DNA of 64,000 nucleotides from Escherichia phage vB_EcoD-Elw: sequence record OR621298; one strand, 5' to 3'. Below, piece by piece: positions 9,041 through 64,000 of this stretch. Position 1 is the first letter of the stretch; each line of letters starts with the position of its first letter. A program made the position numbers and the translations under genes. The notes below the pieces were generated by a model, which was not told the origin of the DNA, did no database searches, and was given only the letters and a program-made list of their open reading frames with translations.

Positions 9041-9745
9041 ATGGCCGGTTCTCGCAGAAAGAAACATATCCATGAAATCCCGGATGAAGTCTTTAAAAAA
9101 GTTATAGAGCATCTGGAGAACGGTGGTACTAAGAAAGCAGCTTGTGAGATGCTCGGCGTATCATCCAATCCAACTATGGAAAGGATGATTGAAGAGTGGC
9201 AAGACCGCCAGATTCAAGTTGCCGAAATGAAGAAAAAGAAACGTGGCACACTCATTGAAGGTATTGAGTTGGCCAACGTTATTGAACAGTATTTATCTGG
9301 TGATTCTTTTGAAGAGATTGCCGATCGTAATTATCGCTCTGTAGCAATGGTTAAATCTGTTCTGGAACGCTATGGTGCTCTGCTTCGTTTGAACGATATT
9401 GTAGACCCGTTGAATCCTCCTATTATTCCTGATGATGCTGTAGCAGAAGAATTTGAAGTTGGTGAGCTTGTTTGGGTTCCTGGATACCAGTGTATCGGTG
9501 AAATCAAAAAAGCAATGGATAATCCTGTTGGTTGCTACCGTGTATGGCTTCTATCGGAAGGCAAACAACAGAACGTTCATTATATGAATTATGAGCTGGC
9601 TTCTGTTAAACACCTGGAAAAGTTAGGAGTTGATGTAAAATCTCTGGGGTATAAATGGACTCGGGAAGAAGTCATTACGTTGATTAACGAAGCTGTTAAG
9701 GCCGCCTTGAAACTTGATAAAGAAAAAGGAAAACGCCGTGAGTAG
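9041..9745 (+). CDS. putative HTH DNA-binding early protein
   Basis: 234 aa; N-terminal HTH-like segment GGTKKAACEMLGVSSNPTMERM. Confidence 0.45.
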   Translation: MAGSRRKKHIHEIPDEVFKKVIEHLENGGTKKAACEMLGVSSNPTMERMIEEWQDRQIQVAEMKKKKRGTLIEGIELANVIEQYLSGDSFEEIADRNYRSVAMVKSVLERYGALLRLNDIVDPLNPPIIPDDAVAEEFEVGELVWVPGYQCIGEIKKAMDNPVGCYRVWLLSEGKQQNVHYMNYELASVKHLEKLGVDVKSLGYKWTREEVITLINEAVKAALKLDKEKGKRRE

Positions 9746-9989
9746 ACTAACTGATTTACTTAAAGATGGGGAAGTAAAAACACTATATCGTAGAAGCTGG
9801 GGTAACGATAATAACGGCTTAGTATTACTAACTTTAGATGCTGACTCGGATGTAGCTACTCAGCATACCTGGGTAGCCGGTAACTATCCATATAGCGAGG
9901 TTGTTTCATTAACAGTATGCGAAGCTATTGCAGACGATTGGGAGGTTGCCAGCATCGAGGATATGCTCGCTGTTGGCCTGGTGGAGTAA
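9714..9989 (+). CDS. hypothetical protein
   Basis: 91-aa ORF. Confidence 0.4.
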   Translation: MIKKKENAVSRLTDLLKDGEVKTLYRRSWGNDNNGLVLLTLDADSDVATQHTWVAGNYPYSEVVSLTVCEAIADDWEVASIEDMLAVGLVE

Positions 9990-10006
9990 CTACTTAAAAA
10001 TTTCAG

Positions 10007-10035
10007 TTGCTTAATCCTATAATTCTTGATATAAT
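10007..10035 (+). promoter_or_regulatory. early sigma70 promoter
   Basis: TTGCTT 10007-10012 and TATAAT 10030-10035, 17-bp spacer. Confidence 0.6.
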
Positions 10036-10092
10036 ATTCTCATAGTTTGAAAGAACTATTCTGTTTAATTCTTAATTAAGGAAATATAAAAT

Positions 10093-10503
10093 ATGACTAC
10101 TCCAACTCAGTGGACTGATGAACTGTTCGAAAAAATGTCTTCCGAATACGTTGCTCGTATGGAGCAATTCCCAGAGGATGAACGTCCTGGTGTTAGCATG
10201 GAAATTGTTAGCGAAATTGCCCAGGAAAATGGTGTAACTCCGAACGGTTTTCGTATGAAGCTAACTAAAGCAGGTTTGTACATCAAGAAAGCTGCTGGCT
10301 CTGCTTCTAAATCTAGTGCATCTACTGGAGAAAAAGCTTCTGGTGGTTCTCGCACTTCTAAAGCTAAAGCTCATGCCGACCTTCGTTCCGCATTCTCTGA
10401 TGCTGGCCTAGCACCAGATTTTCTGGATGATGCAATTATTGACAAACTGACCGGTAAAGCGGCTGCTCATCTGGCAGAAGCAATCCGAGCTATCACTAAG
10501 TAA
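10093..10503 (+). CDS. hypothetical Ala/Ser-rich early protein
   Basis: 136 aa; host-optimal codons suggest high expression. Confidence 0.5.
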   Translation: MTTPTQWTDELFEKMSSEYVARMEQFPEDERPGVSMEIVSEIAQENGVTPNGFRMKLTKAGLYIKKAAGSASKSSASTGEKASGGSRTSKAKAHADLRSAFSDAGLAPDFLDDAIIDKLTGKAAAHLAEAIRAITK

Positions 10504-22391: not shown

Positions 22392-23369
22392 ATGAGAATA
22401 TTATTTAGTGCTGATCATCATATCAAACTAGGACAAGATAAAGTTCCAAAGGAATGGCAGAAGCGTCGCTTCCTGATGCTAGGAGAACGGTTAAATGATA
22501 TATTCCATAATCATAACTGTGATCTTCATATTGCTGGTGGTGATATACTTGATGTTGCCGACCCGTCGTCAGAAGAAATAGAACTGCTTGAACAGTTCAT
22601 GTCAAGACTTGACCATCCAGGCAAAATCTTTACTGGAAATCATGAAATGTTAACTAAAACCATTTCATGTCTATATCATTATGCGGGGGTTATTAATAAA
22701 GTAACGAGTGGTAAGTGGGAAGTAATTACCAAACCATATCGTTCCCCTGAATTTGATATTGTTCCATATGATGAGATCCATAAATCCAAATGGAAACCAT
22801 CTGAATCAAAACTATGTTTCACACATGTTCGTGGTGAAATCCCTCCACATGTAAAACCAGAAATTGATCTAACTAAGTACAACTGTTATGATACTGTAAT
22901 TGCTGGCGATTTACATTCTTATACTAATAGCCAGACTATCGGATCTACTAGACTTCTCTACCCAGGATCCCCATTAACTACATCGTTCCATAGAGAACGC
23001 ACAAAAGGTACAAATGGTTGCTTTATCATTGATACCGACACATTAAAAGTAGAATGGATTGAACTAGGTGATTTACCACAACTGATTCGTAAAACAATCG
23101 GAGCTGGTGAAGAGATGGAACCTAGTGATTATGATCGTGTAGTCTATGAAGTTACTGGTGACGTTGTTCAATTAAAGTCTATCAAAGACTCTGATTTATT
23201 AGATAAGAAGATTAATCATCGAGTCACTAAAGACGCTAAGTTAAATCTTGTTGATCTTGATATGTTAGGTGAACTTGAACTTTACTTCCGTGAAGTCGAG
23301 AAGCTATCTCAAGGCGACATTGATAGAATCTTGGCTAGAGCTGCGAAATATGTCAAAGATTACAATTAA
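22392..23369 (+). CDS. SbcD/Mre11-like metallophosphoesterase nuclease (D12-like)
   Basis: N-terminal RILFSADHH, then GDILD and GNHE motifs. Confidence 0.7.
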   Translation: MRILFSADHHIKLGQDKVPKEWQKRRFLMLGERLNDIFHNHNCDLHIAGGDILDVADPSSEEIELLEQFMSRLDHPGKIFTGNHEMLTKTISCLYHYAGVINKVTSGKWEVITKPYRSPEFDIVPYDEIHKSKWKPSESKLCFTHVRGEIPPHVKPEIDLTKYNCYDTVIAGDLHSYTNSQTIGSTRLLYPGSPLTTSFHRERTKGTNGCFIIDTDTLKVEWIELGDLPQLIRKTIGAGEEMEPSDYDRVVYEVTGDVVQLKSIKDSDLLDKKINHRVTKDAKLNLVDLDMLGELELYFREVEKLSQGDIDRILARAAKYVKDYN

Positions 23370-25188
23370 GACACTAAAATTTAGTAACGTTATGTCTTAT
23401 GGTAAGGACATCGTAATTCATTTCGATAAGAATCCAGTTACTCAACTAATTGGTGGCAATGGACTAGGGAAATCCACCATCGCTACGGTTATTGAAGAAC
23501 TATTTTATAATAAGAACTCACGCGGCATTAAGAAGGATGCTCTGTTCTCTTGGTCTTCTCCGAAGAAAGAGTATGATATGCACGCTTACTTCTCGAAAGA
23601 TGAAGATGAGTACGAACTGCATAAAGTAGTTAAGTCAACTGCTAAAGTAACCCTTATTAAGAATGGAGAAGATATTAGTGGACACACGGCAACCCAAACA
23701 TACAAGATGATTGAAGAAATTATGGGTGGTGACTTCCAAACATTCACCAAACTGATTTATCAATCGGTGGGTTCCAATCTAGATTTTCTAAAAGCAACGG
23801 ATGCAACACGTAAGGCTTTTCTGGTTAACTTGTTCAATCAAGAACAGTATAAAGAAATGTCAGAAACTATTAAGGCTGACCGTAAAGAAATAGCAAATAC
23901 CTTAAATAATTTGCAGGGCCAGATGGCTGTAATTACGAAAATCCTTAATGGGAAAAATAATCTAGGTACTTTGCAGGAACCTGTAGAAGTACCGGAGTTT
24001 GATGAAGAGCCATTAGCACAAGAACTTACTGAATCGAAAATTAAGGCGGCATTAGCCAAGTCTCAAGAGGCTAATATTACTAAATTGCGTAATTTGGACA
24101 AAGCTGTACAAGTTGCTGAACAATCTTTCGAGCCTTTCAAAAATTTACCCGCGCCCACTGACCAAAATGAAGAGATCTCAAGTGTTACGCGTGACCTAAC
24201 GATTGTGACCTCACGTGCGGGCGAAGTTAAGAAACGTTATCAGAAGTTCAAGCAAGAGGCTTCAAATACTGAATGTCCTACCTGTGGTACTCATCTGGAT
24301 ACAACTGCTGCGCAAAAAGCAATGGATATGGCTAGAATAGAATATGACCCTCTGTTCAAAGAGAAGCAATCTCTTGAAGCTAAGCTAGAACAGTTGAAGA
24401 AAGAACAACTTGAGTACGTTGCATATACTAGAGCAAAGGATGCTTTGGATAAGGCAGTAGCAGCTAGAGACGAATTCAAAAATTCAATGAGTGATACTTC
24501 TTTTGAAGAACTCAATGTGCAAAACCTACAGGTGCAAATCCGACAATTAGAACAGGAAATAGCTGATGGCCGTTCTAAGGTTGCAATTGCCAAAGAGCAT
24601 AATGCAAATGTTGAATTAGCCAATGCAAAATATAAAGCGAAACTAGAACAGATTGAGAAAGCTGAGGCAGAAATGTCTGAGATTACTTCTAAACTGGATG
24701 AGGTATCAGAAGCTGTTGCTGATCTCGATATTCTGATCGCTGCATTAAAGAATCTAGTAGGATATAAACTAGAGCATAGTGTGAAAGTATTTGAAGAGCT
24801 TATCAATAAATATCTTTCCATTATGACTGGCGGTAAGTTCGCACTTGGATTTGAACTTGATGAAACAAAATTACAAGTAGTAATTTTCAATGATGGAAAC
24901 CGTACCAGTATGGAGAACTGCTCTACTGGTCAGCAAAGTCGAATCAACCTAGCAACCCTGTTAGCTATTCGAATGCTACTAACATCTATTAGTAAAGTTA
25001 ATATTAATCTTCTATTCCTTGATGAAGTAATTAGCTTTATTGATACTAAAGGACTTGACACTCTTGTTGAACTATTAAATGAGGAAGAAAGTCTAAACTC
25101 TATCATTGTTTCTCATGGGCATACGCATCCTTTAGCTCATAAGATTACTGTCAAAAAAGATGCAGAAGGATTTTCCTACTTAGAATAA
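23350..25188 (+). CDS. SbcC/Rad50-like ATPase (D13-like)
   Basis: Walker A GGNGLGKST, long coiled-coil with central CPTCG hook, C-terminal LLFLDE; start placed at ATG 23350. Confidence 0.7.
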   Translation: MSKITIKTLKFSNVMSYGKDIVIHFDKNPVTQLIGGNGLGKSTIATVIEELFYNKNSRGIKKDALFSWSSPKKEYDMHAYFSKDEDEYELHKVVKSTAKVTLIKNGEDISGHTATQTYKMIEEIMGGDFQTFTKLIYQSVGSNLDFLKATDATRKAFLVNLFNQEQYKEMSETIKADRKEIANTLNNLQGQMAVITKILNGKNNLGTLQEPVEVPEFDEEPLAQELTESKIKAALAKSQEANITKLRNLDKAVQVAEQSFEPFKNLPAPTDQNEEISSVTRDLTIVTSRAGEVKKRYQKFKQEASNTECPTCGTHLDTTAAQKAMDMARIEYDPLFKEKQSLEAKLEQLKKEQLEYVAYTRAKDALDKAVAARDEFKNSMSDTSFEELNVQNLQVQIRQLEQEIADGRSKVAIAKEHNANVELANAKYKAKLEQIEKAEAEMSEITSKLDEVSEAVADLDILIAALKNLVGYKLEHSVKVFEELINKYLSIMTGGKFALGFELDETKLQVVIFNDGNRTSMENCSTGQQSRINLATLLAIRMLLTSISKVNINLLFLDEVISFIDTKGLDTLVELLNEEESLNSIIVSHGHTHPLAHKITVKKDAEGFSYLE

Positions 25189-49144: not shown

Positions 49145-50461
49145 TTATTTACCACGGGAAATAGAATAAATTCCATAGCGGAGCGCATCACAAAGGTGAG
49201 AGTTAGCATCATGACGTGGTTTTTCACGTGATAATTTCTCTTCACCTTCTTGGAAGTCCCACTTGTAATTCTGCAATGCATGAATTAAGGAGGAACATGA
49301 GGCATTTACAATAATCTTGCCCTGTTGGAACAGTGCTTGCAGGCATGCTAGGCCATCTAGGACAGATTTTTTAGCTGGAGCTGAGGCAATTTCATGCTCA
49401 TAAGCTAAGTCCTGGCGGAACTGAGCTGCTGCAGAGTCAACAAAAATACGATCAACTTTATAACGATCTATACAGTGCTGAATATAAGCAGCATGCTGAG
49501 CTGTAGTTTTCTCCGCCTGCTGGTACTCTTCTAATACATAGTAAGTATCCGTATCGTAATGATATTTAATAGTAAGAACTGCTGTAGGATCACGATAACC
49601 AACGTCAATACCAAGCAACGTTTCGAATGCTTCATCATCTTTAAAGAAGTGACGCATACCTTTGAGATCTTTAACATGATCGATAGCATTAAAGGTATCA
49701 AATATCTGTCCTTCGAATACAGAGAAGTCAGCTTCGTATTCTTGGCGGAAGTAGTTTTTACTAACCGTACGGCGTGCCTCCTCAATGTCATTCAAATCAG
49801 CACGTGGGTTATCACGATATGTACCATGAATAGACACCCAGTTAGGTAACGTATCATCGAATCCGTAGGCGTAAAACTCTTTAAACCAGTTACCTCCGCG
49901 AGGGGTGGAAATAAATAGAGCCTTAGAATTAGGCTTATCTAGGGTAGGACGCAGCTGAACCCTGAAGGCATCACCACCCACATCGGAAATTGCCGCCTCG
50001 TCAAAGATGATAAAATCATATGAACGTCCAACCGCGGAGTCAGCCTGAGCCGCGGAAGCTAGTTTAAATAGAGAACCATTAGCTAACTCAATCTCTTTAT
50101 CTTTAGCGTTTTCACGTTCGGTTTGTAGGCCGTACTTCTTAATAAGACCACGAATCTGAGACCATCCGATATTAGCTAGTGAATAGTTAGGGGCAACTAC
50201 TAGTACCTTCACATTAGGTTCCAGCAATTTTAGGAACCCAAGTGTATACGCTATAAAAGATTTACCTACACGGCGTGATACACATGCCGTTACAAAACGA
50301 TGTCTAGGGTCTTCTAGGGCATTGATAATTGCTATTTGAGGGCCATTAGGTGTGATACCCTCTTGTGCTAGTATTCCGGAAACGGGTAAACGAAAGAAAC
50401 GCTTATCTATTCCGAAATCAATAACATCTACTGTATTAACATAGGGTCTTGATACTTCCAT
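49145..50461 (-). CDS. terminase large subunit
   Basis: 438 aa; P-loop-like VSRRVGKS in the N-terminal half; synteny. Confidence 0.75.
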   Translation of the reverse strand: MEVSRPYVNTVDVIDFGIDKRFFRLPVSGILAQEGITPNGPQIAIINALEDPRHRFVTACVSRRVGKSFIAYTLGFLKLLEPNVKVLVVAPNYSLANIGWSQIRGLIKKYGLQTERENAKDKEIELANGSLFKLASAAQADSAVGRSYDFIIFDEAAISDVGGDAFRVQLRPTLDKPNSKALFISTPRGGNWFKEFYAYGFDDTLPNWVSIHGTYRDNPRADLNDIEEARRTVSKNYFRQEYEADFSVFEGQIFDTFNAIDHVKDLKGMRHFFKDDEAFETLLGIDVGYRDPTAVLTIKYHYDTDTYYVLEEYQQAEKTTAQHAAYIQHCIDRYKVDRIFVDSAAAQFRQDLAYEHEIASAPAKKSVLDGLACLQALFQQGKIIVNASCSSLIHALQNYKWDFQEGEEKLSREKPRHDANSHLCDALRYGIYSISRGK

Positions 50462-50943
50462 TACTTCTTACCTCCAGTAGCTAGGGAAGTAATTAAATCC
50501 ATGTAGTTTTGATCCCCGGCTCCAGCAATAATGTTATTCTGGATATTAGTCTGATTAGCAGGAGCTCGGACGGCAGCTTTAGCTTTTTCTAACTCCACCA
50601 TCATCTTCATTTCTTCCATCTTCATTTTGTGTGCTTTCCAGAGAATATCCATAATATCCTGGTCAGAACCCATGCCAGTTTCTTCTAGTTCCTCCAGCTT
50701 ACGCTTAATAACTTCATCCAGAACACCAAATAAACGATCCCTATTACGGAAACCACTCTCCATAAAAATATCATTTAAGTAGTTCTTAACCTCACTACGA
50801 TTCATAATATCTCGGAAAGCAATTTCGGACATTCCAAGACTACGTGCGGCAGAAGGCACATCGCTGCCGCACTGTAAATAAGCTTCAATTACATCCATCC
50901 CTTCAGGGGACATAAGATCTGGTACTAATACATCATTTGCCAT
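50461..50943 (-). CDS. putative terminase small subunit
   Basis: 160 aa; upstream of and coupled to the large-subunit gene; AGGAGG RBS. Confidence 0.45.
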
Positions 50944-54023: not shown

Positions 54024-54174
54024 TTTGACTTTTGCCAAATTTCATAAGATTACACATGGAGGTGTGTCCACTGGCTGGCTAGATGAGAATGAGTCTCATT
54101 ACCGCCCGGTACTTAGCAGGCTAATAGTCACGGCATGTTATCATTACACACCGTGACTATTTCAACTTTAATTA

Positions 54175-54909
54175 TTACGCAACTTTTAATTTCTCAATAT
54201 ATTGTTGCGGGCTGCAACTATATTCTGCGCGTTCTTCCTCGGTCATACTTTCCCAACATAATTGCAGGCGGTCGGCTAGGAACTGATAATCATTATCATC
54301 CTCAAGAGATTCATCAATAAAGGTTTCACCTATCAATGTAACCCCAATCGATAGAATATCGTTAACGGCTTGCGCGTCCAGCGTTTTAAATCCGTATGAT
54401 GCCGCCGCTGATAGCACGCCTTTATGATCATCAATCATCGTGAAATCAGCGTTCGGATATAATTGTTTAAATAACTCAAAGTAATGGCTTTTATAAATAG
54501 CGTCTTTGCTGTGGTATATCTCGCTAACTTTATCAGCCTCAAAATATTTGTGTAGTGTATCGCGGGAAAATACACGGATATTACTATCCCCACGCCCTCG
54601 CAATCCTTGTTTGCGCAAATAATAATAATCCGACTTGCTCATTAGTCGAGCGGTGCAAATAATGTTTAACGTGTTAACGTCATTCATACATTGGCGCATA
54701 TATGTAACAAGGGGCAATAGTGTATCTTGCATTATTAAATCATGTTTGCAGGCTTCATTTTTATACTTATTTAAATCTAAATTGCCCTCGCTATCAAAGC
54801 AAGGCGCTACGCGATGGAAAGAATTAATGATAGTGCCGTCCAGATCCCAAATCATGACGCGGGAAATATGCGGGAAATTACGGGTAATATTCGTTTTAAC
54901 TTGATTCAT
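54175..54909 (-). CDS. dmp: HAD-family 5'-deoxyribonucleotidase (dmp-like)
   Basis: 244 aa; HAD motif I WDLDGTII and C-terminal MIDDHKG; first gene of the pre-early block. Confidence 0.7.
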   Translation of the reverse strand: MNQVKTNITRNFPHISRVMIWDLDGTIINSFHRVAPCFDSEGNLDLNKYKNEACKHDLIMQDTLLPLVTYMRQCMNDVNTLNIICTARLMSKSDYYYLRKQGLRGRGDSNIRVFSRDTLHKYFEADKVSEIYHSKDAIYKSHYFELFKQLYPNADFTMIDDHKGVLSAAASYGFKTLDAQAVNDILSIGVTLIGETFIDESLEDDNDYQFLADRLQLCWESMTEEERAEYSCSPQQYIEKLKVA

Positions 54910-54989
54910 TTTGTTACGTTCTCCATTTAAGGGATTAGATTAATTCAGCATTACCCGCTATTTATAAGCGGGTAATAATAAATTAACTA

Positions 54990-55382
54990 TTAAAGACCAT
55001 ACGCCAACGCATCAGCAATAAAACTAATATCTTCACCAGATACACCGGAACGAATGCCCGCGCAGGTATATACCTTTGCGCTGGTCAATTGATCATCGAG
55101 GCAAGCGGGGCAAGGCGCGACAACTGCAAAGGCTAGGCCGGATTTTACGGCGTCGATGATAATCGTTTCTTGTTTCACAGTGTCAACATAAACACCTTTT
55201 GCTTTAATATGGCTAGTTAGTTTACCTTGCGTATAGGCAAAGGTAGTAACCTGCAAAGCGTCGTTAAAGTCCAATAGCTCATCAATAACGTGCCCCGCCT
55301 CGACGTGGTAACGTTCACCATTAGAATAAACCAGAACAATGGAAGATTGAGCGCGATCGAATGGGATATTTTGCTTTTTCAT
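54990..55382 (-). CDS. hypothetical pre-early protein
   Basis: 130-aa ORF. Confidence 0.45.
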   Translation of the reverse strand: MKKQNIPFDRAQSSIVLVYSNGERYHVEAGHVIDELLDFNDALQVTTFAYTQGKLTSHIKAKGVYVDTVKQETIIIDAVKSGLAFAVVAPCPACLDDQLTSAKVYTCAGIRSGVSGEDISFIADALAYGL

Positions 55383-55422
55383 ATTTATAAAACTCCAATT
55401 AATTTAATAAAGGGTATTTAAT

Positions 55423-55680
55423 TTACTTGATAATAATCTGCATTTGATACGGCGTTAATTCACCATTTACGGGTAAATTATTATCGCTTAGCCACTCATA
55501 AAAAGCGTCATCATCGTCAAAAGGGATAATATCATTATCACGATAATCGACCGTAATAATCCCATCCGTATTAGTTTTGGCGGCTAGGATAGGCCCGAAG
55601 CTGTAAACTTTATCGGATTCCATTTCATCCGGTGAAATAAATGCTTTTTCGTCCAGCGTTTTGGGTAATGTAACTTTCAT
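55423..55680 (-). CDS. hypothetical acidic pre-early protein
   Basis: 85-aa ORF. Confidence 0.45.
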   Translation of the reverse strand: MKVTLPKTLDEKAFISPDEMESDKVYSFGPILAAKTNTDGIITVDYRDNDIIPFDDDDAFYEWLSDNNLPVNGELTPYQMQIIIK

Positions 55681-55736
55681 TCTAATTTAGCTCCTATAAT
55701 AGCGGCTATATTTCAAGCCGCTAGGGTATTAATTAT

Positions 55737-57401
55737 TTACGCAAAAAATTTACCGTTCTTAAAATCGATCAAAGTACGCTGACCATTTGCATAGGTAATT
55801 AAATGCGTTTGTGTCCAGCTTGACGCGCCAACGTTGTAACCCATGTCCAGACTACCAGCCACGCCAGCGGTATATACCCCGCCGTAAATGCTGGCGGTAT
55901 GAGTGTGCCCCGTGTTTAATTTGCCCAATTTCTTAAACTGTTTCGGATTGCCACGGCTGCCGTTTATGCCATTGTGACCGTGTACGCCGCATTCAATGCC
56001 TGCAATTTTAAATGATTGGTCAGTCGTTAGGAAAATGGCGTTAAACTCGCAACCTGCAACCTTACGCAGCGCATAATCTAGCACGTTGAAAGTATCGTCT
56101 TTTTCTGCAATAGCTCCGTAAATCGCGGCATTCAGGCGGTGATATAGTTCCGCGTTCGCTGGGTCGTCTTTAATGTTAGCATTACGATCATCAAGCCAAC
56201 GGGATAGCGCCAAATCGTGATTCGATTCAACAATGATTGTTTGCGAGAAATCGCGCTCCATTGATTCCAGTACGCGCCCCGTATCGATGAGATCATCCAG
56301 AACTTTATCACGTCCGGCGGCGTATTGTTTTGCTAGGAATACACCCGAAGCGCGGTTGTGATGGTTGCGTGATGTAAAATCGTGAACGTCATGGATAAAC
56401 TGATATTTTGGTTTAAGAATATCAAGCAAGCTATTTTCGCCAGCCCATGACGCAATGGCACAATCATCATCAAGTTTTTCGGCGTGTATGTCGCCATATT
56501 GCAAGCCTAAAACATGCCCCGATGTTTCATAGCATCCGGCGGGAGTAGCGCAAACATTCAGATCATAAAACACCCCGCTTTCGTCCATTGTTTCAAGCTG
56601 GCGAACAAAAAACTCACCGTCTTCGTCGAACTCAACAATCAGCGCACCGAAGTTATGCAGTGCTTCCGCTTTCTGTCCTGCTTTCTGCTGGATGTAATTT
56701 TTAAGCGTTGCCGTGCCAGTTGAATACATGCGGCGCACTACTTCACCTTTTAAAGCTGGCACGCTTTCGGCGGTGATTTTAGCGTGACCAATTGCCAGAC
56801 CTTCCAGATTAAGCGCGGTTGCAGTTTCAGCGAATCCAGAAAGCGGATAATCTGCGGTGGGCAAAACATTAATTTCAGCCATGAAAGCAAAACGGCGATT
56901 ATTCAAAAACACGTTTTTGCTGCAAATATATTTATCGAACGCGGAATCATATTTTATTCCATCCGCGCCCTCGCCATTTTGGAATCCGTTTTTATTATAA
57001 ATATACTTGCTAACCAGCAAATCAGCGCCGATATATTTAGCAAATTGCTCCAGTGAGGCTAAAAAGTTTTTATGCGGGAACGTATTATTCTGAATCGATG
57101 TAATAATAAAGCGTTTGCCTTGTTTTACTTCCCAGCTTTCCACCGTGCTAGAAACAATCCCCGCCGCTTCTGGGCGCTCATCGTTTTTAATGGCTTTTGC
57201 TACTTTCGCCGCTTTCGGTTTCGCTGGTTTATTTGCTTCCAGCCAATCACAAATAGCGGTGGAATGTTTTGGAGTATCGTAAACCGCTTTTGATATATCG
57301 TCACAAACTTCCAATTTAGTGGCGCGCAGGCGTTTACCGTAGAAATTAAAGTCAGCGGCCATTTTCAGGATAACGGTTTGTTTTTCTGCGGAAATAATCA
57401 T
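55737..57401 (-). CDS. A1: A1-like pre-early protein, metallophosphoesterase-fold nuclease
   Basis: 554 aa; calcineurin-like motifs GDIH, ESNHD, HGH, GHTH; size close to the 556 aa I recall for T5 A1. Confidence 0.7.
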   Translation of the reverse strand: MIISAEKQTVILKMAADFNFYGKRLRATKLEVCDDISKAVYDTPKHSTAICDWLEANKPAKPKAAKVAKAIKNDERPEAAGIVSSTVESWEVKQGKRFIITSIQNNTFPHKNFLASLEQFAKYIGADLLVSKYIYNKNGFQNGEGADGIKYDSAFDKYICSKNVFLNNRRFAFMAEINVLPTADYPLSGFAETATALNLEGLAIGHAKITAESVPALKGEVVRRMYSTGTATLKNYIQQKAGQKAEALHNFGALIVEFDEDGEFFVRQLETMDESGVFYDLNVCATPAGCYETSGHVLGLQYGDIHAEKLDDDCAIASWAGENSLLDILKPKYQFIHDVHDFTSRNHHNRASGVFLAKQYAAGRDKVLDDLIDTGRVLESMERDFSQTIIVESNHDLALSRWLDDRNANIKDDPANAELYHRLNAAIYGAIAEKDDTFNVLDYALRKVAGCEFNAIFLTTDQSFKIAGIECGVHGHNGINGSRGNPKQFKKLGKLNTGHTHTASIYGGVYTAGVAGSLDMGYNVGASSWTQTHLITYANGQRTLIDFKNGKFFA

Positions 57402-57442
57402 AGTAATAAAACTCCATTAAAGGGATTAAAAAACGTTTGTTA

Positions 57443-57486
57443 TTGGCAAATATTGCCAAATATAACGCCTATTATTTGAGGCGTTA
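57443..57486. promoter_or_regulatory. two palindromes upstream of the A1-like gene
   Basis: ttggcaa-ata-ttgccaa (57443-57459) and taacgcct-8nt-aggcgtta (57463-57486). Confidence 0.4.
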
Positions 57487-57498
57487 TAATTTGCAACA

Positions 57499-57744
57499 TT
57501 AATTTAAAGGCATAAGGCTAGAACTAACACCACAAACAACGGCGGCAATAAAACAAATCAGACCTAAACGCTTTGCTAACTTAGATTTACGTTTAAAATA
57601 ATATGAATCTAAATCATTTTGAAAATAAGCGAATAGTAATGAGGCCGCCATAATAAATAAGCCTAGAATTAAGGATTCAGTAGGGTAAAAGATCATTTTA
57701 ATAACTCCAGTCAAAGGGAAATTATAGTGGGGAATATTCCCCAC
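57499..57744 (-). CDS. small two-helix membrane protein
   Basis: 81 aa with two hydrophobic segments. Confidence 0.45.
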   Translation of the reverse strand: MGNIPHYNFPLTGVIKMIFYPTESLILGLFIMAASLLFAYFQNDLDSYYFKRKSKLAKRLGLICFIAAVVCGVSSSLMPLN

Positions 57745-57753
57745 TAATTAAAT

Positions 57754-58170
57754 TTATTCGCCTGCGGCTTGTTTCACTTCATCGGCAACGCCTAACAGTT
57801 GCGCCACGGCGTCCAGCGTTTCCAGTTTTGCGCTTTCCAGTGATGCCAGATCGTCGGCGTCTTTGATAATGCCGGAATCGATAGCGTGTTTTGCAATAAC
57901 GCGCACATAATGCGCTTTGCGGATTGAGCTACCGCCGCCAACTTTGCGCGGCTTATCGCTTTTCTGATACGCTTTTGCGCTGGTCAATTTTGAGCGAACG
58001 GACACGGGGGAGGCCGCGCCAACTGCTTTTGCAATCTCTTTCAGGCCGTCGCTATTTGCGAAATCTAAACCGTTTTCATTAATTAACTGCTGGTACATGG
58101 TAACAGCTTTTTGGGTGTTTTCTTCATTCCATGCAAATTTTGCGGATTTTTCGGTTTTAACGTTAGCCAT
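57754..58170 (-). CDS. A2-like pre-early protein (putative)
   Basis: 138 aa; position directly upstream of A1; assignment by synteny only. Confidence 0.4.
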   Translation of the reverse strand: MANVKTEKSAKFAWNEENTQKAVTMYQQLINENGLDFANSDGLKEIAKAVGAASPVSVRSKLTSAKAYQKSDKPRKVGGGSSIRKAHYVRVIAKHAIDSGIIKDADDLASLESAKLETLDAVAQLLGVADEVKQAAGE

Positions 58171-58269
58171 GATTGTAGCTCCTATTAGTTTAATTTAAGG
58201 GATAAGATTAACATAATGTTAATCGTTATATCCCCCGAACTACTAGGGGGATATAAAGTTAACACTAAA

Positions 58270-58521
58270 TTATAAAACAGCTTCCCATTTTTCGTTACGC
58301 TGGACAACCTTTACAACGTCGCCGGATTTAACGCGAACGCTAAAAACGGTTTTGCCGTTGTTACTCCGTTCCGTTTCAGCGTATACCGCGTCGATTGTAT
58401 CGAACGGCATAAGCGCCGCGCCTTTAATGCGTTCGGCCTTTCCGGTTAATTCATCCGTTTTAGTAACGAAAGGAATAAAAACGGATTGACCAACTTTCGG
58501 CGCGGTAATAACGTTTTGCAT
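58270..58521 (-). CDS. hypothetical pre-early protein
   Basis: 83-aa ORF with AGGAG RBS. Confidence 0.45.
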   Translation of the reverse strand: MQNVITAPKVGQSVFIPFVTKTDELTGKAERIKGAALMPFDTIDAVYAETERSNNGKTVFSVRVKSGDVVKVVQRNEKWEAVL

Positions 58522-58556
58522 AATATAAACTCCTAGTTATTTGGGGATTGTTCCGC

Positions 58557-58586
58557 ATTACCTGCTAGAAAGTAACAGCAGGTAAT
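58557..58586. promoter_or_regulatory. palindrome upstream of the 83-aa ORF
   Basis: attacctgct-agaaagtaac-agcaggtaat, perfect 10-bp arms, no U-tract. Confidence 0.4.
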
Positions 58587-58719
58587 AAGTAACAATCCGC
58601 TCGCCAATATAATCAATTTAAAGAACTCCACGCAGGCCGCTATATCCCAGTTAGGGGGCGGGGCACATTATGGTAAGTGCCGACCGTCAAATTTTATCAA
58701 GTTATCGCTCTTATCGAAC

Positions 58720-58744
58720 TGGGTACATCTTAAAGCCTATCGGC
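58720..58744. repeat. 25-bp perfect inverted repeat, copy A
   Basis: tgggtacatcttaaagcctatcggc; exact reverse complement of 58988-59012. Confidence 0.85.
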
Positions 58745-58751
58745 TAGGGTG

Positions 58752-58955
58752 TCAAACAATTTTTTGCAGTTTTTTATGATTTTCTTTTAAGTCAATCATA
58801 ATATTACGCCAGATCATTTCCAGACCTTGCTGGCGGCCTTTCTTGTACTGCTTAAATCGATATTTTACCGATCTTTGCGCTACTGTCAACAAATTTTTTG
58901 TTTTGCTGTCCAGTGCCTTGCTAGGTTTACCAGTGATCAATAAAGTTTGTTTCAT
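58752..58955 (-). CDS. small basic protein enclosed by the 25-bp inverted repeats
   Basis: 67 aa, Lys/Arg-rich; ATGA-type overlap with the upstream ORF. Confidence 0.4.
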   Translation of the reverse strand: MKQTLLITGKPSKALDSKTKNLLTVAQRSVKYRFKQYKKGRQQGLEMIWRNIMIDLKENHKKLQKIV

Positions 58956-59242
58956 ATCGTCGATTCCTTATAATGTATAAGTTTACCGCCGATAGGCTTT
59001 AAGATGTACCCAATTTTTAAAGAGCGCGGCGGTAAACTTCCCGCCGTGTAGTTCGTCATTGCCGCCCTACGAGATAAATAATAGGGGATTCCCGAAAATG
59101 GCGCAACCTTATTTTTGTAAAGAAATGTAAAGACAAACGCCACCGGACACCATGCGGCGACCGGGGCGCGGCGCATTAAAATTAAAAGAAACGGGCGCGC
59201 GAATACCATAAAACCCAGCAGGTTGGCAAGTAATTTTTTCAT
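58952..59242 (-). CDS. hypothetical protein with N-terminal hydrophobic segment (doubtful)
   Basis: 96-aa ORF; weak RBS; its coding sequence contains inverted-repeat copy B. Confidence 0.3.
   Translation of the reverse strand: MKKLLANLLGFMVFARPFLLILMRRAPVAAWCPVAFVFTFLYKNKVAPFSGIPYYLSRRAAMTNYTAGSLPPRSLKIGYILKPIGGKLIHYKESTI
58988..59012. repeat. 25-bp perfect inverted repeat, copy B, with nested local stem
   Basis: gccgataggctttaagatgtaccca; flanked by gtttaccgcc (58981-58990) and ggcggtaaac (59028-59037). Confidence 0.85.
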
Positions 59243-59411
59243 TTATATTTGCCTTGCCCTACTTGACAAAACTTAAAAAGCTCGTGGTAGCGATAAACGA
59301 GGGTAGGCAATGCAATGGCATGGCTAAAACTTTCATCGCGTTCTAGGGCGTTTTAGGCGCATTCTAGCCTTGTTGATAACTTATCCCCAAAAGCAAAAAT
59401 GAAATTTTCCT

Positions 59412-59448
59412 AGTTATCCACTTGACTTTTATTTTCCAGTGGATAACT
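59412..59448. promoter_or_regulatory. inverted pair of DnaA-box-like sites
   Basis: agttatccac-17bp-gtggataact; each half is TTATCCACt, one mismatch from the consensus TTATCCACA. Confidence 0.5.
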
Positions 59449-59594
59449 ACTTATTTTATGAAATAAATTAATTGACTTTTATTTGTTAGTATGCATCGGA
59501 AGAATAGCAGACTAATAATTACTAGAATAATAATCATGCTGGTGGATTGTAACGGCCTAAACTATCAGCAGACTATTAATCACGAAAAATCTCG

Positions 59595-59625
59595 TTAGCT
59601 AACTAACTATTTCATGATGTATAAT
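59595..59625 (+). promoter_or_regulatory. candidate sigma70 promoter with early-type leader
   Basis: TATAAT at 59620-59625 followed by atacatataaatt, as in the early promoters; -35 weak. Confidence 0.35.
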
Positions 59626-59741
59626 ATACATATAAATTAATGAGAAATAATAATTATAATAAATAATAACTACAGTAAATAATAACTATAAGAAACTATC
59701 GGCCTAAGTGAGAACCACTATCATTTAAGTTATACACAAAG

Positions 59742-59811
59742 TTATCCACAGCACTTTTTGACTTTACACGATAGGCGGCGATATAAGGACTTTTACACAG
59801 ACTTATCCACA
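59742..59811 (+). promoter_or_regulatory. two consensus DnaA boxes bracketing a candidate promoter
   Basis: TTATCCACA at 59742-59750 and 59803-59811; TTGACT 59758-59763 and TATAAG 59782-59787 lie between them. Confidence 0.5.
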
Positions 59812-60104
59812 GGTTATTCCACTGTATAAATATACAGGGTAAAAAGGTAGTGTTAACAACTGCAATCAATTTTAAGCGGCTTAAATCGCATTCTAACGAG
59901 CTAAACGCTGCGGGGTAATATTAAAGTAAAGCCTTAATGCGTCACCCTGGTGGCTTCGCCGTGGTTTGCTCTTTATTGCACCGCTGCGCGGTTAGCATAA
60001 AAATAGGCGCTAGGCAAGGAAAATAAAAAGGTAAAATAATATTTGCCTATGCTAGAAATTTACCTTTATCATTCACTCACCGATTAACGAGGGAGGCCGA
60101 ACAA

Positions 60105-61115
60105 ATGAGGCTTTATAAACCTGATAATGCCACCGTTTTAAAAGGTGCATTGCGCAACCTGCTGGATGGTAGCAAGTCAACCAGCATTAAACATTTTATT
60201 AACAAGATTGAAACTATTCATCAAAACTTTTTTGATGATTATGACGCTTATGATATGGATAGTTTTCTACCCTTATATAGACAAGGGGCAACGCTAGTTT
60301 TATATAATCGGGATTGCCATATCTTTACAGGCAGGGGAGCGGGGCCGGATACCGATTTTATTGTTGCGCAGGGTAATAATATTGTTGCGTATCATAGCAA
60401 TTCAGGCCGTCAATCATTTAATATAAATAGTTTTGAGCTTATTGGACTTGATCTGATAAATGGACTTTCTAGCATTGAGGGATTTTTAGATGTTATCTGG
60501 AAGTATTTACCCGCTGGATGGCATAAGCCGGATAACGACGGATCTCAATATACCGGTATAATGGCTTTTGATGGCGACGGTAATTTTTTGTTACCACGGG
60601 AGCTATACCCATATATTTATGATGGGGATATAGAAAGCGCTGGTTTTTCTTTCTGGAAAGATGAAGATCAGATTATTGACAGCGTAGAAAACCATGCTGT
60701 AAATTCTAACACTCAAAGCGTTAACACTCAAACTACTGAAAACAAAGGAAAAAACACTATGACCAAGATTGCTAACATCGTTGCCGCTAATAAATCCGCC
60801 GTTGTAAATGCTGCAAAACTGGAAGCGGGTAAAATTGCACTGACTCAAATTACGAAAGTAGCGGCTAAAAAAGCACCGTTTATGATTAAAGGTTATATTG
60901 ATACACCTATCGGTCGAGTAGTGATTGCCAACCTGCTGGGCGTAGCGGTTGACCAGTACGCCACAAGTAACCAAAAGGCGAAAGCGGTGGCAGGTGCAGC
61001 TATGGAAGCGGCTATGTTAGAAATGGTGCAAAGTTTTAACATCGCTGAGATGATTGATGAAATGGTAAAAGGTATTGATATTTCTACTTTTACCACTAGC
61101 ACCGAAAGCGAGTAA
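60105..61115 (+). CDS. hypothetical pre-early protein
   Basis: 336 aa; first gene of the rightward cassette; GGGAGG RBS. Confidence 0.55.
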   Translation: MRLYKPDNATVLKGALRNLLDGSKSTSIKHFINKIETIHQNFFDDYDAYDMDSFLPLYRQGATLVLYNRDCHIFTGRGAGPDTDFIVAQGNNIVAYHSNSGRQSFNINSFELIGLDLINGLSSIEGFLDVIWKYLPAGWHKPDNDGSQYTGIMAFDGDGNFLLPRELYPYIYDGDIESAGFSFWKDEDQIIDSVENHAVNSNTQSVNTQTTENKGKNTMTKIANIVAANKSAVVNAAKLEAGKIALTQITKVAAKKAPFMIKGYIDTPIGRVVIANLLGVAVDQYATSNQKAKAVAGAAMEAAMLEMVQSFNIAEMIDEMVKGIDISTFTTSTESE

Positions 61116-61180
61116 TAATATTAAGCGGGGATTGTTACCCCGCTTTACTATTCCCTTGTTAACTAATAGGAGGCTAATAA

Positions 61181-61675
61181 ATGGCTGATGAAAAATATGG
61201 CTTCTCACTGGGAGAAGTGAGCACGGCAAAACATGATATGATCATTTTGGTCGATTGTCATACTGGCTATTGCGGGGAAGGGAACACCGAGGAATATTTT
61301 GTTCCTGCTGGTACGGATCTGGACGCTTTCGCTCAGGAAATGGCTATTGATAATGCTTCTCGTTTTGGTAGCGATGGTTACGAAGACGAAGAAACTGGCG
61401 AATGGTATGAAAATGAAAACGTATATGCAAGCCTTTATCATTATCAATTAAGTAAATCCGGCACATATGTAAACGGCGGCGATCCTATTAATTCCGTCAT
61501 GAGATTAATTATTAAATATGGCGGCGTCGAGATAGTTGGTAACAAAGCGGTAATATACGCAAATCGATTAAAACAGCTTGTTTATATTCCTGATAGTACC
61601 CGATGGGATGAATATGCTGTTTTGCATGACGAATTGAAACGATGTTTCAATATTGAATCCTTACAAGTAGTCTAA
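61181..61675 (+). CDS. hypothetical strongly acidic pre-early protein
   Basis: 164 aa, about 29 Asp+Glu versus 11 Lys+Arg; AGGAGG RBS. Confidence 0.55.
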   Translation: MADEKYGFSLGEVSTAKHDMIILVDCHTGYCGEGNTEEYFVPAGTDLDAFAQEMAIDNASRFGSDGYEDEETGEWYENENVYASLYHYQLSKSGTYVNGGDPINSVMRLIIKYGGVEIVGNKAVIYANRLKQLVYIPDSTRWDEYAVLHDELKRCFNIESLQVV

Positions 61676-61780
61676 TGTAAAGTTTTGTAAAGGTCGCCTT
61701 TTATGGTGGCCTTTTTTGTTATAATGCCTTTACACCGTTTGAGGACGGTTGAAAATTTTCCCAAAAATTGGAGGCTTAAA

Positions 61781-62011
61781 ATGGTTGCTTATTCTTCTGC
61801 TAGTCATCTGTTCACCGCTCAAGGCTGGGTATCTAACCGCGTTATTATTCACGAAATGGTGCAAGAATATGGCATTGCTAAAACATACAATACCATTCAG
61901 GCGCTTTATGATAATGATCAAATCGATCAGCAAACGGCGGGCTTTTTGCTGGATACCCTGAAAGCAGAACATTGCACCAAAAAACAAGCGGCTAAAATTG
62001 TTTTAATGTAA
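61781..62011 (+). CDS. hypothetical small protein
   Basis: ATG at 61781 with GGAGG RBS; the ORF track starts further upstream. Confidence 0.45.
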   Translation: MVAYSSASHLFTAQGWVSNRVIIHEMVQEYGIAKTYNTIQALYDNDQIDQQTAGFLLDTLKAEHCTKKQAAKIVLM

Positions 62012-62052
62012 TTAATAACGGGGCGTTATTTTCGCCCCACTAACTAGGGGGA

Positions 62053-62208
62053 ATGAAAATGGTTATTTTTCGAGCTATTTTAGCGGGTATCTTGGGCGCT
62101 ATTTTATCGTTGTTTGCAATAGCTTTCGGCGTTCACGCGGTTATTATTGGCGCGGGTATCGCTGCATTTTCTTATCTGCTGGGCTGCATGACTAGTAAAG
62201 GAGAATAA
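62053..62208 (+). CDS. small hydrophobic membrane protein, 51 aa (not in ORF track)
   Basis: ATG 62053; MKMVIFRAILAGILGAILSLFAIAFGVHAVIIGAGIAAFSYLLGCMTSKGE. Confidence 0.4.
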   Translation: MKMVIFRAILAGILGAILSLFAIAFGVHAVIIGAGIAAFSYLLGCMTSKGE

Positions 62209-62210
62209 AA

Positions 62211-62423
62211 ATGATCCGCAATGTTTCCCTTGCCCGTTCGAAAGGCTTTAAGCTGGTGGATGTTAACACGTTCGAGCGTGAAGATTGTAAAATCGAATAT
62301 GTAGCACGTAATAAGAATGCCTTTCGTGTTACAGAAAAGAAATTTGACAAGCGCGGCAACGTGATCGCTGAAACGGTTAAACACTTTGCCACCTTTTACG
62401 CTGCGTTTCGTGGGGTGTTATAA
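62211..62423 (+). CDS. hypothetical small protein
   Basis: 70 aa; AAAGGAGAA RBS. Confidence 0.5.
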   Translation: MIRNVSLARSKGFKLVDVNTFEREDCKIEYVARNKNAFRVTEKKFDKRGNVIAETVKHFATFYAAFRGVL

Positions 62424-62424
62424 A

Positions 62425-62769
62425 ATGGTTATTTATGAGGGCAACCGCTTTGTTGCTAATTGCCGCCCTGCATTGCTAGCAAATTACTTAAATCAGCTTT
62501 CACCAGCTTATAAGGGCGTTATTAATATTTATGAAGGCAAGGCGCATTATAAAATCAATGCGGTCGTTGCCCGTGAACTAGCGTTTCAATTTTTGACCTT
62601 TGCATCTTGTGACGTTCAGGTCATGGGTGAAGCGTTAATTGCAGAAAATGAAGATGATTTTATTAATATTTTTCGCAAGATATGCACCGAGCGCCTGATA
62701 ATGAAAGGCGCTTATATTCAATCCACTGCGGATAGTATTGAAACAGCGTTTCGAAAGGTGGCGCAATGA
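62425..62769 (+). CDS. hypothetical protein
   Basis: Start placed at ATG 62425, just after the upstream stop. Confidence 0.45.
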   Translation: MVIYEGNRFVANCRPALLANYLNQLSPAYKGVINIYEGKAHYKINAVVARELAFQFLTFASCDVQVMGEALIAENEDDFINIFRKICTERLIMKGAYIQSTADSIETAFRKVAQ

Positions 62770-62969
62770 GCAATAAAATTGTTGTAACCAAAATCAGTAC
62801 AATGGTTGATGTTTTTTACGTGCCCGATACGCCGGAAAACCGGCAAGCGGTCGAGCGTGGCGAGTATGATAAAGTGATTTATGATCACGATGGTTATTAT
62901 CAGCATTTGGTCGATTCCTATGGGGAAGAGGAAAAGATCACGCATCAATTACCGGAGGATGGTTTATGA
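62766..62969 (+). CDS. hypothetical small acidic protein
   Basis: 67 aa; overlapping start and stop. Confidence 0.45.
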   Translation: MSNKIVVTKISTMVDVFYVPDTPENRQAVERGEYDKVIYDHDGYYQHLVDSYGEEEKITHQLPEDGL

Positions 62970-63221
62970 AACGATGGTTTAATCACTGGTATAAGCGGTT
63001 TTTAGTACGCCGTCGCAAATCTAGACATCAAGATGAGTGGCGGGAGTGGGCAAAGCGTAACGGTTGCCCGCTACTCTGAGAACGACGGGGATTAGCTCCC
63101 CGTTTTTCCATGCCTCCAGTTAAATACCCCCTTGTTTTAGTATCCCCACCAAAATTAAACGCGTTAGAATGCGATCTAGGACGTTTTAGCGGTATATTAG
63201 AATTATTCACTACATAGGAAT

Positions 63222-63332
63222 ACTGTATATTTATACAGTAGGATAAGCTGTGGATAAGTCTGTTAATAACGCCTCAAAATGGCTAGGATTCTGTCAAGTC
63301 AAATCGTGCTGTTAATAAGTCTGTGGATAACT
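63222..63332. promoter_or_regulatory. DnaA boxes (inverted orientation) and palindrome
   Basis: TGTGGATAA at 63249-63257 and 63322-63330; palindrome actgtata-tt-tatacagt at 63222-63239. Confidence 0.55.
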
Positions 63333-63344
63333 TAAATAATAGTG

Positions 63345-63506
63345 TTTCTCACTTCCATTCTTAAATGCAAATCATTATCATTCGCATTTCACTTTCTAAA
63401 TGAGAATCATTTCACTTCTTGAATAGTTCTCATTTCACTTTTTAAATGCGAATTATTATCATTCTCATTTCGCTTTTTAAATGATTCTTATTATCATTCG
63501 CATTCA
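63345..63506. repeat. five degenerate ~30-bp direct repeats
   Basis: Units of form tt(t/c)tTAAATG(c/a)gAAT(t/c)ATTATCATTCGCATTTCAC, imperfect, no unique spacers. Confidence 0.7.
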
Positions 63507-63509
63507 GGC

Positions 63510-63536
63510 GCGCAGGGCAATTGCCCTGCGCTTTTG
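63510..63536 (+). terminator. GC-rich palindrome with T-tract
   Basis: gcgcagggc-aatt-gccctgcgc followed by tttt. Confidence 0.45.
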
Positions 63537-63757
63537 TGCAAATCCGACATTGCTCCACGGGTGTTACGTGCGGGCGTGTATGTGCGAATCCGACAATTTT
63601 TGGTAGTGTGCAAATCCGACCCGAAAAATTTTTATAGTGTGCAAATCCGACAATGAATTTTCCCAAAAACTCCAGCAATCCGATGCTGCGCATCAATCCT
63701 GTGGAATTAGCTAGAATATGTGCAAATCCGACATGGGTTTATTTGTGCGAATCCGAC
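63536..63757. repeat. six direct 13-bp iterons GTGC(A/G)AATCCGAC
   Basis: Copies at 63536, 63582, 63608, 63639, 63720 and 63745, same orientation; degenerate copy near 63674. Confidence 0.75.
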
Positions 63758-64000
63758 AAGATTTTTGTGACTTTGATTGGAGGGTGTGTGATTGTATGGG
63801 TTTGAGGAGAAGATGAGAGAGCGAGAAAAATTTGAGGGAACTGTGAGAGGGGCGCAGGATTGGTGCGGAGCACCTGATTTGCGGGGATTTTGGGGAAGAG
63901 TTGAGATAATTTGGGAAGATTTGGGATAGGTGCAGATAAAGTAAAATTTTATTAGCAAAACGAGGCAAAATAGCTTGACAAGTGAAAATTTCTGTGGCTC

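Follow-up and report, generated by a model that had tools for sequence, protein, structure and literature searches.

Anatomy and conservation of the T5-type injection stop region at the genome end of Escherichia phage vB_EcoD-Elw, a candidate platform for specific DNA-binding proteins

Phage T5 transfers its DNA into the cell in two steps, a process that was first described more than 50 years ago. Which DNA element of a T5-type genome could halt the first step, and which proteins could read it? In this study, the question was approached through the non-coding repeat region that closes a 64,000-nucleotide (nt) stretch of Escherichia phage vB_EcoD-Elw (sequence record OR621298); this whole stretch is referred to as the window. 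A preliminary description had placed an array resembling an injection stop signal at positions 63340-63770, beyond the pre-early genes dmp, A1, and A2. There can be hardly any doubt that this region is the T5-type injection stop signal (iss), also known as Repeat Region 3. Positions 63000-64000 were 88.2% identical to T5 (AY543070, positions 9188-10219) at 100% coverage, and 96.3% identical to phage FFH1; the source phage is T5-like (Tequintavirus). Annotated under the match in AY543070 are an "injection stop signal (iss)" at 9140-10149 and a "major DNA single-chain interruption" at 9748/9749. In AY587007, the matching DNA carries direct repeat B (two copies), direct repeat C (four copies), palindromes C to J, and direct repeat D (nine copies), with "major single-stranded nick 1, 7.9%" placed at palindrome J. 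Repeats B and C, palindrome J, and repeat D form the same set in the same order in vB_EcoD-Elw as in T5. The repeat region is already known and published, and the repeats themselves are not new. Davison (2020; bioRxiv 10.1101/866236), who calls it Repeat Region 3, compared 25 T5-like phages and cited the first description of the sequence, from 1987, and the genome paper of 2005; he proposed that injection is stopped by membrane-bound DnaA on paired DnaA boxes, and found the function of the other repeats "impossible to guess". In what we consider the best reading, at slightly better than an even chance given the sequence comparisons presented here, the region would be a composite of protein-binding sites that together form a platform at the edge of the terminal repeat.

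Position of the region at the genome end

Upstream of the region, structural genes are followed by the large terminase, a small-terminase candidate, a 640-amino-acid (aa) open reading frame (ORF), dmp, A1, and A2, an arrangement that corresponds to the right end of the T5 map. The pre-early ORFs extend to about position 63080. From 63084 to 64000 there is no conserved ORF; stop codons occur in all frames of all 11 aligned phages, in agreement with the earlier claim that the array is non-coding, and the longest open frame switches strand and phase from one aligned phage to the next. A hidden gene (a 177-aa minus-strand ORF is annotated over the array in some records) was rejected on the same grounds, with stop codons in every frame and an unstable best frame. 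A known RNA family was rejected as well: a search of the repeat region against Rfam found no family at threshold, and the top match scored 22.9 bits against a threshold of 100.

Alignment of the 11 phages set the last base of the window (64000) against position 10219 of AY543070, the annotated end of the T5 terminal repeat, and also against the repeat ends that PhageTerm had determined for Salmonella phages Sepoy and Sw2. Position 64000 coincides exactly with the physical right terminus of T5-type genomes, which directly follows ...CTGTGGCTC. The distal position ascribed to the array in the preliminary description, at the end of the A1/A2/dmp block where the T5 iss lies, was thus upheld, both by homology to the iss of AY543070 and by the coincidence of the window end with the repeat end. 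Because the window stops at the genome terminus, it most likely represents the right-hand 64 kb of the genome record, and its copy of the array is most likely that of the right terminal repeat. This copy enters the cell last; therefore, only its identical twin at the left end could stop injection. The left boundary of the terminal repeat could not be placed in the window, because the first 104 nt of T5 had no match there. The repeat element also exceeds the limits first given for it, reaching upstream to about 63217 and, in relatives, continuing with more iterons past the point where the window ends. Majority identity across the final 100 nt of the window was 0.90. In Klebsiella phage KPP2018 (NC_110934; 137,988 bp), about 40 nt that differ from all relatives start exactly at the repeat end, which may be an assembly join at the terminus.

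Sites within the repeat region

The features of the region and the neighboring genes are collected in Table 1. Six same-orientation copies of GTGC(A/G)AATCCGAC had been reported in the preliminary description, and all six were recovered as exact plus-strand copies of GTGCRAATCCGAC, starting at 63536, 63582, 63608, 63639, 63720, and 63745. The core of this iteron is 13 nt long and is not palindromic. When up to two mismatches were allowed, nine matches were found in the window compared with 1.32 expected, and 0 of 100 shuffled sequences reached nine. The order and spacing of the elements of the region are conserved across ten Markadamsvirinae, which have in common iteron start-to-start distances of 46, 26, 31, 81, and 25 nt, then about 343, and then 35; moreover, the iteron columns are 93% conserved, versus 85% in the spacers. 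In KPP2018, DT57C, and UTK0009, which come from different genera, iteron 5 has moved by exactly 10 bp (71/35 rather than 81/25), with the distance through to iteron 6 preserved. This shift is one helical turn, and the helical face is kept.

The same 13-mer was found in 8 to 12 same-strand copies in Sugarlandvirus (Kpn02 and Sealy), Erwinia phage KEY, and Pectobacterium phage My1. In Vibrio phage Noelle, with an A1 of 33% identity, GTGCAAATCCGA(C/T) occurs twice, together with variants, within 180 nt of the record end. The flanking DNA of these distant relatives can no longer be aligned; the iteron, the DnaA boxes, and the LexA-like palindrome all survive in them. Absence or lack of conservation of the iteron in related phages, against which the preliminary description had wished it to be checked, was accordingly not what we found: iterons and iteron spacing are kept in every relative examined as far out as the phages of Pectobacterium and Vibrio. 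Aeromonas phage AhSzq-1 has a variant iteron, GTAGAAATTCGAC, and in Proteus phage 1 a different array, with a 15-18-nt unit, stands in place of the iteron. In IMG/VR, multi-copy TGTGCAAATCCGACA arrays were found only in T5-like contigs of 104-123 kb. Such a pattern of conservation is the mark of a site for a predicted sequence-specific protein. As the iteron is replaced in some genera, its binding partner seems to be phage-encoded and not a universal host factor; the change or replacement of the iteron in the Aeromonas and Proteus relatives would be expected of a site co-evolving with a phage protein. Co-variation was uninformative as to which protein binds, as A2 identity was nearly equal in Noelle, with the iteron (42%), and in Proteus phage 1, without it (41%); the small terminase is 44% identical in Noelle.

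Nicking was also considered for the iteron. As a general rule, the iteron was rejected as the recognition site for T5 nicking, given that no iteron lies near the annotated 18.5% and 32.6% nicks and that the D13 iteron copies are 378 nt from the 64.8% nick. In both T5 and Vibrio phage Noelle, 3-4 nt separate the first iteron from a CCTGCGC motif. The D13 copies are two tandem iterons, one of them exact, at 24517-24544 inside the D13/SbcC-like ORF (23269-25188); they are 15 nt apart, have the same orientation as the array, encode the coiled-coil stretch VQILQVQIRQ, and are conserved in T5 (78936/78951). One further exact copy is present in T5 in T5.019, at 12154. Past the repeat end, relatives have a GGGCCTTCGGCCC hairpin, iterons 7-9, and three copies of a conserved short repeat, TAACCGCCCT.

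For host factors, a panel of 20 transcription-factor consensus sequences was compared with positions 63200-63520; the Fur and LexA consensus sequences were those of established knowledge. LexA, DnaA, and Fur stood out, and none of the seventeen others (including CRP, FNR, IHF, Fis, TyrR, PurR, and MatP) rose above expectation in this stretch. An ArgR box was rejected, its single good match being the LexA-like palindrome itself. This palindrome (T5 palindrome D, TACTGTATATTTATACAGTA) is the sole match to the LexA consensus in the 64 kb at three or fewer mismatches (0.01 expected), and it is kept in 16 of 17 relatives surveyed, Vibrio phage Noelle included. Binding of LexA to palindrome D in vitro seems somewhat more probable than not. 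Next to it, perfect DnaA boxes (TTATCCACA) occupy 63249-63257 and 63322-63330, and a TTATTAACA partner lies 3 nt from each of them (63261-63269 and 63310-63318); the paired boxes were described by Davison (10.1101/866236). The window holds four perfect DnaA boxes compared with 0.6 expected, all in the repeat region. The inverted partner of the DnaA/LexA module, T5 "Repeat Region 2" (10.1101/866236), has a second CTGT-N8-ACAG sequence, CTGTATAAATATACAG, beside an inverted DnaA-box pair.

The five degenerate direct repeats of about 30 bp in the preliminary description are indeed present, with a unit of 23-35 nt. By eye, the five units have CACTTnnTTAAATGnGAAT in common. Tandem Repeats Finder reported a 35-nt unit repeated 3.8 times at 63361-63504 (consensus TTAAATGAGAATCATTATCATTCGCATTTCACTTT) and a nested 23-nt unit repeated 3.2 times at 63385-63457, and a repeat search found 58-nt copies at 63346, 63427, and 63462. 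The GC content of positions 63340-63510 is 29%. Alignment revealed that copy number differs by whole units among phages, and as single-stranded DNA this region folds much better than shuffled sequence (z = -7.4). The repeat consensus TTAAATGAGAATCATTATC agreed with the Fur consensus GATAATGATAATCATTATC at 15 of 19 positions, and individual copies amounted to four or five sites at 14-15 of 19 (12 of 14 to the 7-1-7 motif). Between 63361 and 63501, five positions were no more than five mismatches from the Fur consensus, a count matched by 0 of 2000 shuffles of the stretch. At the same threshold, all 12 Fur-like positions of the 64-kb window fell within 54085-63501, the repeat part of the genome; the positions with Fur-like matches include 54085, 58212 (just upstream of A2), 61343, and 62883. 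A perfect Fur 7-1-7 box (TGATAATCATTATCA), conserved in T5, lies inside the dmp coding sequence at 54284-54298. The T5 core TGAGAATCATTATCA is one mismatch from the 7-1-7 motif, and related cores occur in Sealy, KEY, and My1. That Fur binds the AT-rich repeats in vitro would be a tentative prediction, to which we give a little less than an even chance. Neither Fur nor LexA is mentioned in the text of Davison (10.1101/866236), and full-text literature searches, which did not extend to older subscription papers, did not turn up any paper that connects Fur or LexA with the first-step region of T5. It is unlikely at best that Fur or LexA, either one, would matter for the arrest.

Between the AT-rich repeats and the iterons, the perfect GC palindrome with a T-tract was found as first described: the 11-nt arms of GCGCAGGGCAATTGCCCTGCGC (63510-63531; T5 palindrome J) are 100% complementary, and TTTT follows at 63532-63535. 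The palindrome passed a terminator scan on the plus strand (9-bp stem with eight GC pairs, then TTTTGTGCAA), with an uninterrupted T-run of only 4 nt. The T5 nick motif, CCCTGCGC, forms the right arm of the palindrome, and the position homologous to the T5 7.9% nick is between 63531 and 63532 on the minus strand. Of the four major nicks annotated in T5, three directly follow CCCTGCGC and one directly follows CCCGCGC. Loop length differs among phages (4 to 14 nt), whereas the stem GCAGGGC/GCCCTGC is retained, which points to selection for the hairpin. When T5 ejects its DNA in vitro, it pauses at positions corresponding to the nicks, but ejection runs to completion in many particles (review PMC2771126). 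Given that ejection can complete despite the pauses, a firm stop in vivo needs a cellular factor. Elsewhere in T5, record M62847 ("sciB: putative") ends within the first 21 codons of the small-terminase candidate; we take sci to mean single-chain interruption, and, if so, a nick-related locus adjoins the packaging genes.

Table 1. Features of the repeat region of vB_EcoD-Elw and neighboring genes (window coordinates)
Feature	T5 name	Position	Strand	Remark
Large terminase		49145-50461		
Small-terminase candidate		50461-50943		
dmp	dmp	54175-54909		pre-early gene
A1	A1	55737-57401		pre-early gene
A2	A2	57754-58170		pre-early gene
Inverted partner of DnaA/LexA module	Repeat Region 2	59742-59837	+	TTATCCACA at 59742 and 59803; CTGTATAAATATACAG at 59822-59837
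GC hairpin and T-run	palindrome C / terminator	63084-63107	+	terminator of last pre-early operon; non-coding region starts here
LexA SOS-box-like palindrome TACTGTATATTTATACAGTA	palindrome D	63221-63240	.	19/20 to TACTGTATATATATACAGTA
Two pairs of DnaA-type boxes	direct repeat B / IRD'-spacer-IRC'	63249-63330	-	
Five degenerate 23-35-nt AT-rich repeats	direct repeats C/E, palindromes E-I	63346-63509	+	
Fur-box-like cores		63361-63385, 63398-63412, 63447-63466, 63477-63501		
Perfect 22-nt GC palindrome GCGCAGGGCAATTGCCCTGCGC and TTTT	palindrome J	63510-63535	+	terminator-like
Iteron array	direct repeat D, copies 1-6	63536-63757	+	six exact GTGCRAATCCGAC
Purine-rich conserved tail		63758-64000	+	runs to physical end of terminal repeat (...TTGACAAGTGAAAATTTCTGTGGCTC); GGGAAGATTT repeated 3.4 times at 63893-63926

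In the databases, records named Listeria phage LM 4-14-1, Listeria phage LM 4-11-1, and Campylobacter phage C13 hold T5-like sequence (84-98% identity), and their host labels look doubtful.

Candidate functions of the region

Taken together, these data suggest that the region is very probably a platform of specific protein-binding sites and not structure alone. Its modules would follow one another as a LexA-box-like palindrome with paired DnaA boxes, four or five Fur-box-like AT-rich repeats, a GC hairpin with the nick motif, and same-orientation 13-mer iterons for a factor that is probably phage-encoded. From the homology, anatomy, conservation, and terminus position described above, we infer every binding event in the following scheme, as well as the stop itself. 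At the left-end copy, abundant pre-existing host proteins would load on the last ~300 bp of the first-step DNA as this DNA emerges; the candidates are DnaA, as Davison proposed, and LexA and Fur, which the present analysis adds. The nick and the hairpin may add a mechanical pause. A phage protein could bind the iterons, whose array extends beyond the repeat end: either A2/A1, for the restart of transfer, or, where the same sequence serves as the genome end, the small terminase. We would give an even chance to the prediction that some part of 63217-63757, in its left-end copy, determines the first-step arrest in cis.

Several points weigh against such a platform as the seat of the arrest. The T5 iss label rests on position beside the shear point, and a deletion analysis was not found in the literature. 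The right-end copy, which is the one in the window, cannot itself act as a stop, and proteins on DNA that is already inside do not obviously hold still the DNA that is in the tail. T5 mutants without nicks reportedly still transfer their DNA in two steps. The Fur-like repeats count as about one independent resemblance and not five, because they are duplicates of one motif; moreover, Fur-like cores are absent from Kpn02 and from Vibrio phage Noelle, where a tandem array of 8-bp units takes their place.

Packaging and end formation are a serious rival to a stop-signal role for the iterons, and fit them equally well. The iterons and the conserved end motif would then be the terminase recognition and cutting signal that makes the right end and starts packaging, their nearness to the injection stop being secondary; we regard this as possible, although on the improbable side. 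The physical end falls on the same homologous base in the T5 record, in Sepoy and Sw2, and in the window, and in T5, Sepoy, and Sw2 the iterons flank this terminus on both sides, copy 6 starting about 255 nt before it and copy 7 starting 87 nt after it (in T5, iterons 7-9 lie past the repeat end, in left-end context, at 10306, 10341, and 10478). My1 has one iteron cluster on each side of its annotated repeat end, and a related end motif, GGGGCAAAA..TTGACAA.TGAAAA../AAAAAC (the slash marks the end), and in Vibrio phage Noelle the iterons are 36-180 nt from the record end. By the last-in-first-out principle, the left end, which is injected first, would be packaged last; packaging should therefore start at the right end, where the iterons lie. 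A candidate for the small terminase is also present (PHROG 3802, E = 1e-90), and to our knowledge small-terminase binding is not known for T5. A 2026 review describes the initiation and termination of T5 packaging as poorly understood, which we count in favor of this rival; the Davison preprint (10.1101/866236) considered no packaging role for the repeats and named terminase once, in passing. On the other hand, the distance from iteron to cut ranges from 36 to 500 nt between genera, the isolated exact copies in D13 and T5.019 lie far from any end, and in two records the repeat end is annotated about 200 nt earlier, at about 63793 in the window.

Other functions appear less probable. An iteron-type replication origin, in which DnaA boxes, an AT-rich unwinding region, and iterons would be served by a phage initiator such as the 929-aa protein, is quite improbable. 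DnaA boxes and an AT-rich region adjoining the iterons are present, in a layout like that of plasmid and oriC origins (boxes at 63249-63330, a repeat block of 71% A+T, then the iterons), and Davison (10.1101/866236) called the region "reminiscent of oriC". However, regularly spaced iterons beside an initiator gene, which in iteron origins are usually 17-22 bp long and about two helical turns apart, were not found: a 13-nt core recurs here at 46/26/31/81/25, an irregular spacing of 25-81 nt, and there is no initiator gene next to the array and no ORF in or beside the region. Moreover, electron microscopy cited by Davison (10.1101/866236) placed T5 origins near mid-genome. The 929-aa protein (ORF 5966-8755) did match Pfam Herpes_ori_bp (E = 1.3e-7), a similarity to herpesvirus origin-binding helicases, but the match covers the helicase part alone (profile positions 46-197 of 820) and not the DNA-binding domain. 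The reverse complement of the G-variant iteron contains TTCGCAC, which presumably lies within box I of herpes simplex virus UL9 (CGTTCGCACTT), but this resemblance was spotted after the fact and is probably coincidence. Davison's model could also suffice as it stands, with membrane-bound DnaA stopping transfer and the other repeats acting through DNA shape (cruciforms, bends, a "knot"). The perfect DnaA boxes are conserved and paired, the single-stranded fold is well above that of shuffled sequence, and the hairpin stem survives insertions and deletions in the loop; yet the 13-mer, which is not palindromic, is conserved as sequence and not as structure across genera with diverged flanks, and shape alone leaves the single orientation of all iteron copies unexplained. 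We consider this model unlikely to be sufficient. Transcription control, in which a back-up terminator (the palindrome) and operators would shut down pre-early transcription or insulate it at the edge of the repeat, has about as small a chance as the replication origin. Fur- and LexA-like sites are normally operators, the palindrome with TTTT scores as a plus-strand terminator, and Fur-like sequences are enriched throughout the pre-early block, the one at 58212 lying directly upstream of A2. However, a promoter scan of 62900-64000 revealed nothing above 9/12 (seven sites at 9/12, versus 3.0 expected), no gene lies downstream of the array before the genome end, and the operon is already closed by the stronger terminator at 63084-63107.

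The protein-binding platform and the packaging signal could also be combined in a two-part switch, with a LexA/DnaA/Fur landing pad in the last ~300 bp and an iteron array that brackets the genome end and is read by a phage protein. This proposal is rather speculative, and we think it unlikely. If it were true, arrest would depend on host proteins already present, and one and the same sequence would control injection when at the left end and serve packaging when at the right end. Beyond two-step transfer, a second question is touched, namely how T5 cuts and packages genomes with 10-kb exact repeats. Three sequence-level leads make both questions easier to test, although none of them is a functional result: the candidate partners Fur, LexA, and DnaA; an iteron conserved from coliphage to vibriophage; and arrays that bracket the exact genome end.

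Comparison with known systems

The closest known system is the T5 iss. Palindrome D, the DnaA-box repeats B, repeats C/E, palindrome J with its nick motif, and repeats D occur in both phages in the same order, the iteron spacing is the same, and the repeat ends on the same base. The two phages differ in that vB_EcoD-Elw has two perfect DnaA boxes compared with one in T5, lacks one C-type repeat unit of T5, and has a perfect palindrome J, whereas the left arm in T5 has GAGC for GCGC. In addition, the Fur-like cores of vB_EcoD-Elw score slightly below the TGAGAATCATTATCA core of T5, and iteron copies 7-9 fall outside the window, past its end.

Compared with bacterial operators, palindrome D agrees with the LexA SOS boxes of Enterobacteria at 19 of 20 positions, and the AT-rich repeats resemble the box of Fur operators such as that of the aerobactin iucA promoter, with the outer positions unmatched. 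A Fur operator overlaps the promoter that it represses; the sites here overlap no recognizable promoter, and the promoter-like matches found are weak (9/12). With P1 oriR, F ori2, pSC101, RK2 oriV, and oriC, whose features are generally known, the region shares DnaA boxes, AT-rich repeats, and direct iterons; it differs from P1 oriR, F ori2, pSC101, and RK2 oriV in its 13-nt core, its irregular spacing, and the lack of an adjoining initiator gene. Lambda cosB with its R sites, SPP1 pacL/pacR, and the arrays beside the T7 terminal repeat are likewise familiar from general knowledge. Compared with these terminase sites, the T5-type array is longer, lies farther from the cut, and has isolated copies elsewhere in the genome; its likeness to them consists in short repeats that flank a conserved cut position and in a cut that lies at the end expected to be packaged first.

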